Origin: a virus
Length of the DNA stretch: 64,000 nt
Strand: one strand, 5' to 3'
Virus record (IMG/VR): IMGVR_UViG_3300029305_001279
A model generated the notes under the pieces. It saw only the letters and a list, made by a program, of their open reading frames with translations, ran no database searches and was not told the DNA's origin. Shown in pieces: positions 12,775 to 17,930 of the stretch (the first letter of the stretch is position 1; each line of letters starts with the position of its first letter). Position numbers and translations under genes: made by a program.

Positions 12775-13313
12775 CACCTTTGGAAAGAATGACAGCCGAA
12801 GCCTTCCGCGCGAGTTACCAGGGAAAACGGAACCGCGCACTGGGGCTGCAGTTTGAAGAGATCATCACCGAGGCCTGCGAGCACTACCGCGCCATGGGCC
12901 TCGCCTACATAGAAAAAACCCCCGAACCGATGCGAGTCATCGGAGTTATCAACCGCAAGCTGGGCCACTTCAAGGCTCATTACGAGAAAGCGGCACAGCC
13001 GGACTTCAAGGGCACCATGGCGGGCGGCCGCGCCGTTTGCTTTGAAGCCAAGCACACCGAGACAGACCGCATCAAACAGGATGCCGTCACCGAAGACCAG
13101 AAGAATGCCATGGACCTCCACGAAGCCATGGGAGCCTGGTGCTTCGTTATCGTGTGCCTGAATAACACCTACTACCGTGTCCCCTGGGAGCGGTGGAAGA
13201 CCATGAAAGAGGACTGCGGACACAAGTACATGAATGCCGCTGATCTTCACCCCTATAAGCTGGGCACCTGGCCCGGACACCTTCGATTCCTCGAAACCAC
13301 CGAGAAAACATAA
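12771..13313 (+). CDS. recU: RecU-like Holliday junction resolvase
   Basis: 180 aa; GLQFEEII...Y...GLAYIEKTPEP...DFKGT..GGRAVCFEAKHTE...Q...M......CFVIV aligns with the RecU core (FEAK catalytic block). Confidence 0.65.
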   Translation: MTPLERMTAEAFRASYQGKRNRALGLQFEEIITEACEHYRAMGLAYIEKTPEPMRVIGVINRKLGHFKAHYEKAAQPDFKGTMAGGRAVCFEAKHTETDRIKQDAVTEDQKNAMDLHEAMGAWCFVIVCLNNTYYRVPWERWKTMKEDCGHKYMNAADLHPYKLGTWPGHLRFLETTEKT

Positions 13314-13374
13314 CCCACCGCAACCAATAAATCCGTAAACACCGTATATAATCGAGAAAGGAGGCGCTTGCACC

Positions 13375-13905
13375 ATGGAAGAGCAAGACATCTATATCCT
13401 GGAGCCGGAACCCTGGGAAAGGCAGCTGAATGAGTCTCCCCAGGCCTTTGAAGCGTTCGCCGCATACCGTGACATGGGAGCCGCGAGAAGTACAGCGAAA
13501 GTGTCCCGCCAACTGTGTAAAAGTGTATCGCTGATGAACAGATGGTCTTCTGAGCACGACTGGGTGAAGCGTGTCGCTGCCTGGGATGCTGAAAAGGACC
13601 GTGTGGCCCGTCAGTCGCAGCTGAATGACATCAAAGCCATGCGTGAACGTCATGCTGCCATCGCAAAAAAAATGATGGACACAGCGGACAGCGCCCTCAA
13701 CAACATCAATCCGAACGATGTCTCTACGAACGAGATCGCCCGCCTGGTCGAAATCGCAAGTAAGCTGGAGCGCATTTCCCGTGGCGACGTGGGCGATGTC
13801 ATCGAGGAGCGCGATGGTGGCGAAGCGGTATCCCCTGTTCAGATCTACGTGCCGGATAACGGCCGGGGCAAGGACAAGGACACATTCAATGACCTGACGG
13901 TATAA
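13375..13905 (+). CDS. putative terminase small subunit / HTH packaging protein
   Basis: 176 aa; ESPQAFEAFAAYRDMGAARSTAKVSRQL..SVSLMNRWSSEHDWVKRVAAWD resembles the HTH N-domain of many terS-like proteins; call is mostly positional. Confidence 0.4.
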   Translation: MEEQDIYILEPEPWERQLNESPQAFEAFAAYRDMGAARSTAKVSRQLCKSVSLMNRWSSEHDWVKRVAAWDAEKDRVARQSQLNDIKAMRERHAAIAKKMMDTADSALNNINPNDVSTNEIARLVEIASKLERISRGDVGDVIEERDGGEAVSPVQIYVPDNGRGKDKDTFNDLTV

Positions 13906-13986
13906 CAACTGAATATCCTGGCTATTCTGCGATAACTCCAGAGAAGCCACAGCAAAAGAACAGATATAACCAGGAGGAACCACAGC

Positions 13987-15889
13987 ATGAAATTAGGAAG
14001 CCTTTTTGATGGGTCGGGAGGATTCCCGCTCGCAGGAGAGCTTTGCGGCATAGAGCCGCGCTGGGCGGCTGAGATAGAGCCGTACCCAATCGCCGTTACA
14101 AGGGGGCGTTTCCCCTAACTTGGTACACCTTGGAAGTGTGACCGAGATCAACGGCGCAGAAATAGAAGCAGTAGATGTAATCACCTTTGGATCGCCGTGC
14201 CAGGATCTTTCCGTGGCTGGAAAGCGGGCAGGGCTGAAGCACTCAGCCAACGGCGACGATGAAACCACACGCAGCGGCCTATTCATGGAAGCCGTGCGAA
14301 TCATCAAGGAAATGAGGAAAGCCACAAATGGAAAATATCCGAAGTATGCAATATGGGAAAATGTCATGGGCGCCTTCAGCTCAAATGCCGGCGACGACTT
14401 CCGTGTCGTCCTCGAAGAACTCGTCAAAATCTGCGAACCGGAAGCACCCCCGATACCTTCGCCTGGTAAAGCGGGATGGCCATACGCCGACTGCATCATG
14501 GGAAACGGATTCAGCCTTGCTTACCGTGTTTTCGATGCGCAATACTGGCCCGGCACCCCTCAACGCAGAAAACGTATCTACCTTGTCCTCGATCTTACAG
14601 GCGAATGTGCCGAAAAAATACTATTTGAGCGCGAAGGCTTGCGAGGGCATTCTGAGAAGAGCCGAGCGCCGTGGGAAGGAGCTGCCGGAGATCCTCAAGG
14701 CCGCTCTGGAACAGACGATCCAGAGAGCAGCATAATAGCCATCGATCAACAAGGCGGCAAAGGCAACGCAAATTATGCCGTCGATGTGATGCCTACACTT
14801 TGCAGCGATAGCCATGGCACCCCTCATGCGGTAGCATACGGTGTAACGAGCAAAGGTAATGGAGATAGCTTCATCTCAGAGGAACGGCATACCGCTTTAT
14901 CTACAGGCGGAGGCCAACCGGGGCAGGGATATCCATGTGTGATGCAGCCCATAGCCTTCACCCAGAACCAGAGGGACGAACTGAGAGATCTGGGAGACAA
15001 AGCCGGAACCATACAAGCGGCGCCAGGAACGCATCAGCAGACCTTCATCATCGATAACATCGGAGGTCAAGCGGAATATGGAGTAGAAAGCACCGTAAAC
15101 GGCACCCTTCGAGCTGGTGGGCTGGGCGCTATTTGCTACGATGCCAGAGGAAATGGTGATGGTAAAACCGTCAATACGATCACCGGTGACCACAACAACC
15201 GCATAACAGATTATAGCTCTGTGGTGGTGTATAACGGTGAGAACATCACAAATCCAACGAACAAAGCAAACCCACAACCCGGTGACCCATGCCACACACT
15301 TGGAACCGATAGCAGGAATCACCTCGTATACTGCCTCCAAGGAAACGTCATTGACAGAGCCAATTCTGCCAGATGCAATGGCGAAGGATGGAAAGAGGAT
15401 GTGTGCTACACCCTGAATACCATCGACCGACCGGCTGTATCATACTCAACCGATGTCGGATTCTTTAATACCTGCGAGGATGTGTCCCCGACCATGCTTG
15501 CAAGGATGTACAAAGACCCTCACCTCGTATGCTACGAGGAAGAACCGCAATACATAGTCCGTCGCCTCACCCCTACCGAGTGCGCCAGACTGCAAGGCTT
15601 CCCAGACCGATGGGGAGACATACCACACAAAGAAAACCTCACGGACGAAGAGTACAGCTTCTGGCTGAACGTCCGAAACACCCACGCAGCCATCAACGGC
15701 AGAACTACGAAAGAATACACCAAGGATCAAATCCTCAAATGGTACAATAAACTTCACTCAGACAGTTCCGAATACAAAATGTGGGGCAATGGGATCGCCT
15801 TACCAAATGCCTTGTATGTCATGCAGGGCATAGCGGAGGCAATTAACCATGGTCGAGATCGATACGGAGAAGTGAAACAGAAAGGATAG
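13987..15889 (+). CDS. DNA (cytosine-5) methyltransferase requiring a +1 frameshift at 14113-14118
   Basis: Frame a 13987-14118 gives motif I LFDGSGGF and ends CCC TAA; the +1 frame gives NLVHLGSVTEING..FGSPCQDLS (IV), IWENV (VI), QRRKRIYLV (VIII), a long TRD, RRLTPTECARLQGFPDRW (IX), GNGIALPNA (X). Confidence 0.75.
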
Positions 15890-15898
15890 CAGGACAGC

Positions 15899-16969
15899 AT
15901 GATTAAATTGCTTATTGGCGGTTCCCCATGCACATTCTGGAGCATCGCCCAGAAGAATGGACGGGAAACCGAAGCAGAGGGCATGGGTTGGGAGCTGTTT
16001 AAGAACTACCTCATTGCCAAGGAAAAATTCCAGCCGGACTTTTTCCTTTACGAAAACAACAAATCGGCAGCACAAGCCATCAAGGATCAGATATCACATG
16101 AGCTGGGTGTGGATCTCATGCACATCAATAGTGCGCTGGTATCCGCGCAGAACCGTCAGCGATTCTACGCATTCAACTGGACGGTGGATCAGCCGGAGGA
16201 CCGCGGCATTTCGCTGAACGAAATTCTGGAAGATACACCCGATGAAATAGGCTGCAAAGTTTCCGGAGTCGGATATAGAAACCGCAGAGAGAGCGACGGA
16301 AAGCTGTATAGGCGTTTTGAAACAGACGGCAATCCCAAATCCAACGCTCTGACAACGGTGGACACCGATAGTATGGTTTGCATACCCGCTCACAGCGTCG
16401 CACTCCGCGGACGGGACCACAGATCTGCTTACGAAGTGAGCACCGGCGAAAAAGCGAATGCTCTCACGGGAAGTACCCAGCAACGGCGCATTATAAGACC
16501 TGCTGGAAAATTGCAAGACGGTATCACTTACGAGGTACATAATGGCCTTATTGAAATAAAAGGGAAAGAGTACCCCATCAATTTACCGGACGGCAGCTAT
16601 GTGATGCGGCATCTGACCCCGATAGAGTGCGAACGCCTACAGACGCTCCCTGATGGCTACACCGCCTGTGTGAGCAAAACCCAGCGACGGAAGGCTTTGG
16701 GCAACGGTTGGACGGCGGAGGTGATTATTCACATCCTGAACGGCGCTCTGGCAAACGTTCCTCGGGACGAGGAGATTGTGGTGCTGTCCATGTATGACGG
16801 TATCGCTACCGGTCGGTATTGCTTGGACAAGATGGGCTTCACCAACGTGCGCTATTACGCCTACGAGATCGATAAGTACGCAATGCAAGTCGCATTATCG
16901 AATTACCCGGACATCATCCATTGCGGTGATGCGTTCGATCTGAGAAACCCGGATTGGACAATTAACTAA
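15899..16969 (+). CDS. circularly permuted C5 DNA methyltransferase (motifs IV-X then I-III)
   Basis: 356 aa; N-terminus LLIGGSPCTFWS (IV), FLYENN (VI), SAQNRQRFY (VIII), RHLTPIECERLQTLPDGY (IX), LGNGWTAEV (X), then VLSMYDGIATGRYCL (I), YAYEID (II), HCGDAFDL (III) at the C-terminus. Confidence 0.7.
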   Translation: MIKLLIGGSPCTFWSIAQKNGRETEAEGMGWELFKNYLIAKEKFQPDFFLYENNKSAAQAIKDQISHELGVDLMHINSALVSAQNRQRFYAFNWTVDQPEDRGISLNEILEDTPDEIGCKVSGVGYRNRRESDGKLYRRFETDGNPKSNALTTVDTDSMVCIPAHSVALRGRDHRSAYEVSTGEKANALTGSTQQRRIIRPAGKLQDGITYEVHNGLIEIKGKEYPINLPDGSYVMRHLTPIECERLQTLPDGYTACVSKTQRRKALGNGWTAEVIIHILNGALANVPRDEEIVVLSMYDGIATGRYCLDKMGFTNVRYYAYEIDKYAMQVALSNYPDIIHCGDAFDLRNPDWTIN

Positions 16970-17059: not shown

Positions 17060-17133
17060 GGATCAGCGGGGTGTGGCACCCATCTGCACAAAAGCTGCAG
17101 AAAGAGTCGGTTCGATTCCGGTCTGTTCCACCA
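17060..17133 (+). tRNA. aberrant tRNA-like gene (anticodon loop CAAAAGC, no U33)
   Basis: 74 nt cloverleaf: acceptor ggatcag/ctgttcc (one T-T mismatch), short D arm gggt-gtggc-accc, 6-bp anticodon stem tctgca/tgcaga, T arm gtcgg-TTCGATT-ccggt, encoded CCA; formal anticodon AAA with A33. Confidence 0.5.
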
Positions 17134-17508: not shown

Positions 17509-17585
17509 GCCGCTGTAGCTGCAGCGGTTAGAGCAACTGACTTGTAATCAGTAGGTCGTGGGTTCAAATCCCACCAGCGGCTCCA
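17509..17585 (+). tRNA. tRNA-Thr (UGU)
   Basis: 77 nt; acceptor gccgctg/cagcggc, anticodon arm actga-CTTGTAA-tcagt, T arm gtggg-TTCAAAT-cccac, encoded CCA. Confidence 0.9.
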
Positions 17586-17687
17586 CCGGGCATAGCCCGG
17601 CATAATGTCCTCCTTTTTCTGTTTTCTGACGGCCCGGAAAGACGGGAAGACCTGGGGCGATGGTTATCTATCGCCCTGGGCACCTAC

Positions 17688-17761
17688 GTCGGCGTAGCTC
17701 AATGGTAGAGCACCTGCCTTCCAAGCAGGCAACGCGGGTTCGATTCCCGTCACCGGCTCCA
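17688..17761 (+). tRNA. tRNA-Gly (UCC)
   Basis: 74 nt; D arm gctc-aatggta-gagc, anticodon arm cctgc-CTTCCAA-gcagg, 4-nt variable loop, T arm gcggg-TTCGATT-cccgt, CCA; one C-A mismatch in the acceptor stem. Confidence 0.85.
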
Positions 17762-17854
17762 CTTGCTTTCATTCTTTTTCTCCTCTCCTAATGGCGGCTC
17801 GGAAAGACGAGAAGTGCCGTGCAGGCCTGGTAAACCTGCACGGTGCGCCATTAC

Positions 17855-17930
17855 GCTCATGTAACTCAGCTGGTAGAGTAACGGATTTTTAATCCGTGAG
17901 TCGCGGGTTCGATTCCCTCCATGGGCACCA
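17855..17930 (+). tRNA. tRNA-Lys (UUU)
   Basis: 76 nt; acceptor gctcatg/catgggc, D arm actc-agctggta-gagt, anticodon arm acgga-TTTTTAA-tccgt, T loop TTCGATT, CCA. Confidence 0.85.

Follow-up and report, generated by a model that had tools for sequence, protein, structure and literature searches.

How can a C5 DNA methyltransferase be made from a gene (dcm) whose reading frame breaks between motif I and motif IV? The question is raised by the virus record IMGVR_UViG_3300029305_001279 of IMG/VR, a stretch of 64,000 nucleotides (nt) that was analyzed as a whole and is called the window here; positions are those of the window unless another sequence is named. A preliminary description, made from the letters alone, had proposed that ribosomes pass from a short first open reading frame (ORF) into a long second one by a +1 frameshift at a stop codon. 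Our analysis favors, with a probability that we put at roughly 85%, a programmed +1 ribosomal frameshift of the shifty-stop kind that would be required for the expression of dcm. The elements of the site are the following.

13972..13977, + strand: Shine-Dalgarno (SD) sequence AGGAGG of the first ORF, 9 nt 5' of ATG 13987, kept as CCAGGAGGAAC in clade relatives
13987..14118, + strand: 0-frame ORF of 43 codons plus TAA, with C5 methylase motif I (FDGSGG)
14101..14106, + strand: internal SD-like AGGGGG, a candidate 5' stimulator, 6 nt 5' of the CCC shift codon
14110..14119, + strand: shift cassette TTC CCC TAA C, with Phe, Pro (P site), stop (A site) and C
14117..15889, + strand: +1-frame ORF (NLVHLGSVTEING...) with motifs IV, VI and VIII, several target-recognition modules, and motifs IX and X

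On the + strand of the window, AGGGGG (14101-14106) is followed by CGT (14107-14109), TTC (14110-14112), CCC (14113-14115), TAA (14116-14118) and C (14119). The first ORF, whose good SD sequence, motif I and TAA straight after CCC had been pointed out beforehand, was found as described (AGGAGG at 13972-13977); its product is MKLGSLFDGSGGFPLAG...AVTRGRFP, 43 amino acids in length and motif I included (full translation, MKLGSLFDGSGGFPLAGELCGIEPRWAAEIEPYPIAVTRGRFP), and gene callers annotate this 43-amino-acid gene in five relatives (L002, L003, L012, L013 and L105). From 14117 (AAC TTG GTA...), the +1 frame reads GSPCQD (motif IV), ENV, QRRKR and RRLTPTECARLQGFP...GNG, and past CCC TAA (14113-14118) it stays open for 590 codons; translation thus bore out the motifs that had been expected in this frame down to 15889. 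As had been stated, the downstream frame of the window offers a single start codon near its beginning, TTG 14120, which lies 13 nt past AGGGGG.

Neither ORF alone contains motif I together with motif IV. Indeed, the C5 motifs I (FxGxG), IV (PCQ), VI (ENV), VIII (QRR), IX and X stand in canonical order only in the fused 0/+1 product, a protein of 633 amino acids that matches the Pfam family PF00145 (E value, 7e-35) and aligns with residues 16-137 of M.HhaI unbroken through the junction. The predicted tryptic peptide across this junction is ...GRFPNLVHLGSVTEINGAEIEAVDVITFGSPCQDLSVAGK. The geometry of the P-site codon permits re-pairing one base 3' (CCC-U to CCU), and the unshifted stop stands directly 3' of the shift codon with an open +1 frame beyond it, as in a shifty stop.

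Relatives were gathered by a search with the fused protein, and the window's clade was recognized by the signature KHSANGDD and EIEAVD. At the DNA level the clade comprised nine sequences, the window and eight clusters, with per-codon and pN/pS (nonsynonymous to synonymous divergence) comparisons covering eight clade members. The eight clusters were drawn from ENA scaffolds, a SPAdes NODE contig, MEGAHIT k141 contigs, Logan assemblies and the NCBI metagenome-assembled genome (MAG) GCA_045589835.1 (Faecousia sp.); contigs of the lineage are ~65-70 kb long, and one relative sits in the Faecousia MAG. All nine clade DNAs hold the 43-codon ORF, the string ACA AGG GGG CRT TTY CCC TAR C and the +1 continuation. 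The cassette is TTC-CCC-TAA in seven of them, TTT-CCC-TAG in L002 and TTC-CCC-TAG in L105, and the +1 residues just 3' of it vary (NLVHLG, NSVHLG, NSAHLG, NSVHHG, NSDHLG and SLKHLG). Among proteins, 21 clusters (90% identity) bear the clade signature. All 21 were called as N-truncated, with starts at VTEING, VAGKRAG or later, and no full-length clade member was found among them; in all 21, moreover, the +1 ORF is open over 448-652 codons without a second disruption.

The preliminary description had asked whether RFPN-LVHLG is contiguous in homologous proteins. More distant homologues (47-60% identity) are indeed full length and contiguous (...VTRSRFPNMKHLG...), whereas the close clade keeps the shift in 9/9 DNAs. 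The nearest unshifted relatives read ACA CGC AGC CGT TTC CCG AAC (L011), ACC CGT AGT CGG TTC CCA AAC (L004) and ACA AAC AGA TTC CCC AAT (L104), with one T fewer than the cassette and without AGGGGG; the Gly of TRGRFP, which makes AGG GGG, takes the place of a Ser or Lys of the unshifted homologues. In the wider family, motifs I and IV lie in one frame at 65/65 loci. Since both these loci and the nearest unshifted relatives keep one frame, the frameshift is, to judge from these genes, a derived trait that defines the window's clade. Outside this set, a megablast search with window positions 13300-16900 gave no match in 50,697 phage records, and a DNA pattern scan for KHSANGDDET gave 0 matches in IMG/VR and the JGI metagenomes, collections from which the clade is absent. 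One protein, P0033 (which starts MRHLGD), was considered as an independent shift in another clade and rejected: it is in frame, the gene caller having chosen an internal Met.

Both halves of the gene are under purifying selection, with a pN/pS of 0.06 (pS, 0.39) in the 43-codon ORF and of 0.23 (pS, 0.30) in the next 150 codons, and the signal between them is kept while its flanks diverge. The codons ATC GCC GTK ACA AGG GGG are fixed at synonymous sites, with the other Gly codons of the ORF varying three- or four-fold, and inspection codon by codon found ACA AGG GGG invariant in 8/8 sequences. Pro43 at the shift site is always CCC, and the ORF's remaining four prolines are encoded by CCG, CCA or CCT, never CCC; the shift codon is CCC at 9/9 dcm sites and also at 8/8 sites of the two other loci described below. 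Also invariant are C14119 after the stop and the peptide end Phe-Pro, a context of poor termination in other systems (PMC3082878, PMC12421855).

No other entry to the downstream frame was seen across the clade. TTG 14120 of the window is TCG or CTA in the relatives (8/9); the next candidate start, the Val of SVTEING, is GTA in L002 and GTC in L105, and neither of these two has an ATG, GTG or TTG in the +1 frame ahead of the catalytic PCQ of motif IV. Reinitiation, or a separately started large subunit, is thus unlikely for the clade.

The 10-mer of the dcm site had further been reported to recur at 31272 and 32468, each time at an ORF break. This recurrence is real, and it is kept in three relatives. 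TTCCCCTRAC occurs three times in the window (14110, 31272 and 32468) against 0.21 occurrences expected by chance, and 0/100 shuffles contain as many as three; an ORF ends at each of the three sites, and the +1 frame is then open for 287-590 codons. The two further sites are made up as follows.

28467..31280, + strand: ORF of 937 amino acids with repeated KFNPYHD..GRF modules and 2H phosphoesterase and XkdF domains, ending ..DRFDHIEEFDFP TGA
31260..31281, + strand: second site, GAGGAG, 6 nt, TTC CCC TGA C, with GAGGAG 9 nt 5' of CCC
31279..32142, + strand: +1 continuation of the second site (DSVEKFNPYHDQIGRFT..., 287 codons)
32240..32476, + strand: ORF of 78 amino acids ending ..DRFDYITEAFP TGA
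32462..32477, + strand: third site, GAGG, CG, TTC CCC TGA C, with GAGG 5 nt 5' of CCC
32475..33530, + strand: +1 continuation of the third site (DSVEKFNPFHDALGRFANKMGFKTY..., 351 codons)

Both sites lie between modules of large multi-domain phage proteins, beside head-morphogenesis and capsid genes. At the third site the +1 frame reads DSVEKFNPFHDALGRF after the 78-amino-acid ORF, and the continuation of the second site (31279..32142) had no Pfam or PHROG match. The three relatives L019, L020 and L021 have both sites at homologous places, all as TTC CCC TAA C (third-site homologues at L019 6696, L020 6829 and L021 6363), followed by N[SP][VI][EH]KFNP.. or, at L020 5597, by NPPPDYDVIEEVEKFNP..; where the window has TGA and then an Asp codon in the +1 frame, these relatives have TAA and an Asn codon at both sites. 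GAGGAG stands exactly 3 nt 5' of CCC at three of the four L020/L021 sites (L020 6829, L021 5141 and L021 6363), which is the geometry of prfB. The bases after the cassette at 31272, 32468 and their homologues (GAC/AAC TCG GTT...) contain no start codon. The lineage, as far as these sequences tell, uses one cassette at at least three loci, and at 31272 and 32468 the cassette would yield short and long forms of modular proteins.

The modular proteins of the window (28467-33530) and of L019-L021 combine MuF, ART-PolyVal, 2H phosphoesterase/Acb1-like, XkdF and unknown modules, which open with KFNPYHD..GRF. Some module junctions are in frame (..VRKFNPYHDRIGRFT.. inside the window's 937-amino-acid ORF), and others carry the FP-stop +1 cassette. 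Junction cassettes split modular proteins in gene calls throughout the catalogues, since among the 120 clusters found as best homologues of the phosphoesterase-XkdF module, 49 end in FP. A tblastn search of the phage records with the 31272 junction peptide gave no match.

How, then, would the full-length methylase arise? Ribosomes would start at ATG 13987 and read the 43 codons with motif I, until peptidyl-tRNA(Pro) stands on CCC in the P site with TAA-C in the A site. A peptide ending in Phe-Pro and a stop with C behind it should make termination slow at this point; the internal AGGGGG may pair with 16S rRNA, and the Pro-tRNA would re-pair from CCC to CCU, skipping T14116, with decoding resumed at AAC (Asn). 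The outcome would be the multispecific C5 methylase of 633 amino acids, reading ...RGRFP-NLVHLG... without a break at the junction. From unshifted ribosomes only the 43-amino-acid peptide, presumably inert, would be released, and the site would therefore cap methylase output at the efficiency of the shift. We infer the shift itself and its efficiency, the roles of AGGGGG and Phe-Pro, and the purpose of the arrangement (throttling or conditional control). The likeliest role in dcm would be to cap or condition methylase output, and at the other two sites the cassette may set the ratio of short to long product.

Several points weigh against this interpretation. The preliminary description had placed AGGGGG 6 nt upstream of CCC and likened it to the prfB stimulator; the hexamer is there, but its spacing is longer than the 3 nt of prfB, and its stimulatory role in dcm is for this reason uncertain. 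Overall, the distance of SD-like elements to CCC is 6 nt for AGGGGG in dcm, 9 nt for GAGGAG and 5 nt for GAGG at the other window sites, and 3 nt for GAGGAG at L020/L021 sites, compared to 3 nt in prfB. When six sites were folded, no consistent or conserved signal of a 3' stimulatory RNA structure was obtained. CCC accounts for 32% of the Pro codons of the window phage and is thus too common for a hungry-codon effect; the stop differs by site and relative, and since each of TAA, TAG and TGA is found, the site is not a sensor of any one release factor. The eight to nine clade sequences are related to one another, so that part of the cassette's conservation reflects common descent. The family tolerates splits and permutations near the motif I boundary (L094; window gene 15899-16969), so that a two-piece enzyme stays conceivable. 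Finally, the trans-frame protein and its methylase activity are predictions from the sequence.

Three more specific mechanisms were considered and set aside. Rare-codon pausing at CCC was ruled out by the share of CCC among Pro codons. Autoregulation of the prfB type does not apply, the product being a methylase and the stop TAA, TAG or TGA. A frameshift-suppressor tRNA encoded by the phage was rejected, as there is no tRNA-Pro in the window or in six relatives; besides Thr, Gly and Lys tRNAs the window has only the aberrant tRNA-like sequence at 17060-17133 described below, and no tRNA resembling a suppressor was found.

The full-length enzyme might be dispensed with altogether if the 43-amino-acid peptide and the large fragment were made apart, by reinitiation or internal initiation with AGGGGG as an SD sequence, and assembled non-covalently. 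Split C5 methylases are known, M.AquI being one example. TTG 14120, 13 nt past AGGGGG, could serve such a start in the window, but it has become TCG or CTA in 8/9 relatives, and L002 and L105 have no start before the catalytic Cys of motif IV. The motif-I segment is movable in the family: the second methylase at 15899-16969 is ordered IV-X and then I-III, and an ORF of L094, in permuted order, ends with a motif-I segment (..MGSLFDGIGGFPL..AVTKLRFGEE, then a stop) at the same structural boundary. Reinitiation, however, needs neither CCC nor the preceding Phe nor the C after the stop, yet all are conserved, and the cassettes at 31272 and 32468 and their homologues are likewise without a start codon after them. 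We consider such a split enzyme unlikely. An inherited pseudogene, in which the insertion of one T (or C) in the ancestor of the clade killed dcm and the lesion is shared, is less probable again. All carriers do form one clade, and the lesion is a single base away from the intact TTC CCC AAT of L104; a dead gene would nevertheless hardly show pN/pS values of 0.06 and 0.23 at a synonymous divergence of ~0.3-0.4, no second disruption over 448-652 codons in 21 clusters, and a 43-codon ORF with its start codon and SD sequence kept, nor would it be expected to gain an SD-like AGGGGG via Ser-to-Gly and fix it at synonymous sites, with the same cassette employed at two other loci.

Two further accounts place the correction, or the error, outside translation. 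Transcriptional slippage or a similar process could drop one base and leave the mRNA in frame, and short T and C runs (GTTTCCCC) are present at the site, though nothing about them is specific. These runs measure only 3-4 nt, whereas known slippage needs ~7 or more identical bases (PMC5009743), and their composition differs among relatives (TTT CCCC versus TTTT CCC); nor does slippage need the conserved stop and the C next to it. Correction at the RNA level is thus very hard to credit. A miscall of the C homopolymer, with CCC read as CCCC, had been named in the preliminary description as a result that would undo its case. The four C at 14112-14115 are present in the window sequence; one C fewer would give TTC CCT AAC and the same protein, and a context-specific error could recur at the same 10-mer. 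However, nine sequences that differ in study, assembler and source (MEGAHIT k141, SPAdes NODE, Logan and NCBI MAG) share the extra base, L002 reads TTTT CCC TAG with only three C, and gene callers split the gene in 21/21 clusters. Recurrence of the extra base in independent assemblies, alongside variants of the Phe codon (TTC/TTT) and of the stop (TAA/TAG), excludes a homopolymer error, and we give a sequencing or assembly artefact next to no weight.

A programmed +1 shift at dcm has close parallels among known systems. The prfB consensus consists of AGGGGG, 3 nt, CTT, TGA and C, and the C after the stop is conserved (PMC12421855). Like prfB, dcm would have an obligatory early shift (codon 26 in prfB and codon 43 in dcm), and it has a stop in the A site straight after the shift codon, a C after the stop and an upstream SD-like AGGGGG; in both, the P-site tRNA can re-pair one base downstream, and the unshifted product is a short peptide. 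Unlike in prfB, the shift codon of dcm is CCC (Pro) instead of CUU (Leu), the SD-like element lies 6 nt and not 3 nt from it, the stop is TAA or TAG (TGA at the other window sites), and the product, a phage DNA methylase, does not regulate its own shift. In Escherichia coli pheL, UUC_CCC_UGA shifts +1 at 15%; the shift hinges on the penultimate Phe, for which UUU serves as well as UUC, and the shifting was judged by its authors to be incidental and of no use (PMC3082878). The dcm site has the same three-codon core, Phe-Pro-stop, and the equivalence of UUC and UUU in pheL fits the TTC/TTT variation found at dcm. In contrast to pheL, a long conserved ORF would depend on the dcm shift, the stop is TAA or TAG as well as TGA, and an SD-like element is present where pheL has no such stimulator.

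The analogies drawn in the preliminary description stood only in part. The resemblance to prfB stood, SD spacing apart, and a CCC_UGA site exists in Listeria phages, but it belongs to the tail gene tsh and not to cps of phage PSA: CCC_UGA is the utilized +1 site of tsh in PSA, A118 and A500, and the PSA cps site is ACA_CCC_(UCC_GAA) plus a pseudoknot (PMC5009743). As in tsh, where the site is (AAA) CCC_UGA, the +1 shift of dcm would occur in a phage gene on CCC right before a stop, and the window sites at 31272 and 32468 resemble tsh in lengthening a protein C-terminally, with a short and a long form. The tsh shift gives an optional C-terminal extension of a structural protein, whereas the dcm site would be obligatory and is N-terminal, with Phe at -1 and an SD-like element; the window phages, which are gut Clostridia phages, are moreover unrelated to those that carry tsh. 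In yeast, ABP140/TRM140 shifts +1 at CUU_AGG_C (PMC5009743), a shift that is needed, as in dcm, to reach a methyltransferase ORF. Unlike dcm, this gene is eukaryotic, works by a hungry-codon mechanism, encodes a tRNA methyltransferase and has a long functional N-terminal domain. By the make-up of its sequence, the dcm site is a shifty stop and would work like those of prfB, pheL and tsh.

The enzyme itself resembles the multispecific phage C5 methyltransferases of the SPR and phi3T type and M.HhaI (PF00145) in its motifs I, IV, VI, VIII, IX and X. As in the multispecific type, several target-recognition modules lie between motifs VIII and IX, and their number varies among relatives (448-978 amino acids). 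Unlike in SPR, phi3T and M.HhaI, the coding sequence is broken by a one-base frame change between motifs I and IV, and a nested +1 ORF follows motif VIII. No account of a programmed frameshift in a phage DNA methylase turned up in a literature search; the "methyltransferases" of the PRFect paper refer to the erm leader, and the polyvalent-protein paper makes no mention of frameshifting. That dcm would present a known kind of shift in a new class of gene is well supported.

The nested ORF lies within the downstream part of dcm.

14328..14735, + strand: nested ORF of 135 codons, +1 of the main dcm frame, right after motif VIII, with GAGGAA ~10 nt 5' of its ATG 14328

It ends in a conserved C-terminal peptide (..STLSSILQANVPKKYYLSAKACEGILRRAERRGKELPEILKAALEQTIQRAA, then the stop) and shows, over its conserved C-terminal ~50 amino acids, the pattern ..LS.IL...VP.KYYLS.KAC.GILRRA.RRGK.LP..L..AL... 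By tblastn, the nested peptide is found in 137-138 of 50,697 phage records, with carriers that include phages of Vibrio, Mycobacterium, Escherichia (P1 and P7 dmt), Streptococcus, Caulobacter and Roseobacter, and it is present in at least 599 IMG/VR stretches; the ORF also occurs in L004-L101. In all annotated records that were checked (Javan105, vB_VchM-138, NatCom_3870 and P1, NC_005856.1), the peptide lies inside the coding sequence of a C5 methylase and in the +1 frame. The P1 ORF spans NC_005856.1 ~66710-67201 (L102 2159-2650) and contains the nested-frame peptides ACAGILR and SLPPLLQMALQSVAK. Among 80 IMG/VR loci, the peptide is +1 to motifs IV/VIII in essentially all of those with motifs detected, two isolated frame exceptions being probably spurious motif matches, and the spacing from QRR.R to AC.GIL is fixed at 76 nt in 87/89 sequences.

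Phase-specific entropy, calculated over 86 unique sequences, switches across this stretch from the pattern of the dcm frame to that of the nested frame. Between both patterns lies a short zone in which all three codon positions are frozen, reading IYLVAD(F) in one frame and STLSQIL in the other. Over the 85 upstream codons, stops of the nested frame are depleted 15-fold (0.09 observed versus 1.37 expected by synonymous resampling). Synonymous choices that are fixed in the dcm frame create the SD-like GAGG and the ATG of the nested ORF: AGG encodes the Arg of ..EMR.. in 56/56 genes versus 17% overall, and AAT encodes the Asn of TNG in 40/40 versus 46% overall. AlphaFold2 models the conserved 50 residues with confidence as a three-helix module (pLDDT, 83-93), with a disordered N-terminus. 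Sequence comparison of the peptide with Pfam, PHROG and the PDB gave no match, and its fold had no significant counterpart in the PDB. Entry into the nested frame by a +1 shift at YTT_A, or a return shift at the nested stop, was also considered and found unsupported: no slippery sequence is conserved, the three stop codons are used equally, and both frames would be translated over the same nucleotides. From this pattern, the nested ORF looks like an overlapping gene, apparently unreported, that has initiation signals of its own.

In a minority of loci, the frame of motifs I-VIII closes a short way past motif VIII, and it is the nested +1 ORF that extends across the target-recognition modules and motifs IX-X. 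This two-ORF arrangement was confirmed in L005/L006 (1501-2923), L008 and L094/L096; for L079 the assignment draws on motif frames only, and the nested ORF there still closes 32 codons past the peptide. Such loci would make a two-ORF enzyme reminiscent of the split M.AquI.

Next to dcm, on the + strand of the window at 15899-16969, stands a second C5 methylase gene, which starts at motif IV (MIKLLIGGSPC..) and continues with ENN, QNRQR, IX and X. It ends with motifs I-III (..VVLSMYDGIATGRYCL..YEIDKYA..HCGDAFDL), and PF00145 covers profile positions 62-319 only; the gene thus appears to be circularly permuted. Close relatives are without it and have an ORF of 51-57 amino acids in its place. A tRNA-like sequence follows at 17060-17133 (+ strand), called tRNA-Phe(AAA) by ARAGORN. 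Its anticodon stem is 6 bp long, the loop reads CAAAAGC and lacks U33, a CCA is encoded, and the acceptor stem contains one mismatch; the sequence scores 24 bits with the Rfam tRNA model, under the 29-bit threshold, and no counterpart was seen in six relatives. A tRNA cluster lies between dcm and the large terminase gene (window 17509-17930; Thr, Gly and Lys) and in the equivalent gap of L001-L014, conserved in position and variable in content (Thr, Gly, Lys, Gln, Ser, Val and Met, with no tRNA-Pro, in the relatives). Genes resembling anti-defence sponges (Acb2/Tad1 hairpin, Tad2-like) adjoin dcm in L003 (2086-2445), L013 (2405-2764), L105 (497-949) and L014 (4039-4488), and in P0026 and P0033 a sponge-like gene is fused to the methylase (Pfam PF24729 on the same protein).

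A broader picture, which we offer tentatively and at slightly less than even odds, is that of a gene read in three frames. A portable cassette at at least three loci would stand under one host variable (termination capacity or the state of tRNA(Pro)), which would jointly set methylase output and the ratio of short to long products; in addition, a small third-frame gene with its own initiation signals would be nested in the methylase and conserved across the phage C5-methylase family, from gut Clostridia phages to mycobacteriophages, Vibrio phages and P1 dmt.

To our knowledge, utilized +1 frameshifts in bacteria and phages are few, comprising prfB, the Listeria-phage tail gene and a handful of others. 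The core shown to shift in E. coli pheL, where it was judged incidental, would here be indispensable to a phage DNA methylase; an AGGGGG like that of prfB accompanies it, and two other loci of these genomes employ it again. For catalogues of metagenomic phages this means that the methylase is systematically truncated (21/21 clade clusters) and that modular proteins are split (49/120 clusters ending in FP). The cassette is directly searchable in other phage genomes, and in Clostridia it offers a natural system in which to ask what Phe-Pro-stop, the C that follows and SD spacing each contribute to +1 efficiency. The nested ORF, if true, would be of greater import, as a conserved overlapping gene inside phage C5 methylases for which P1 is a direct test case.

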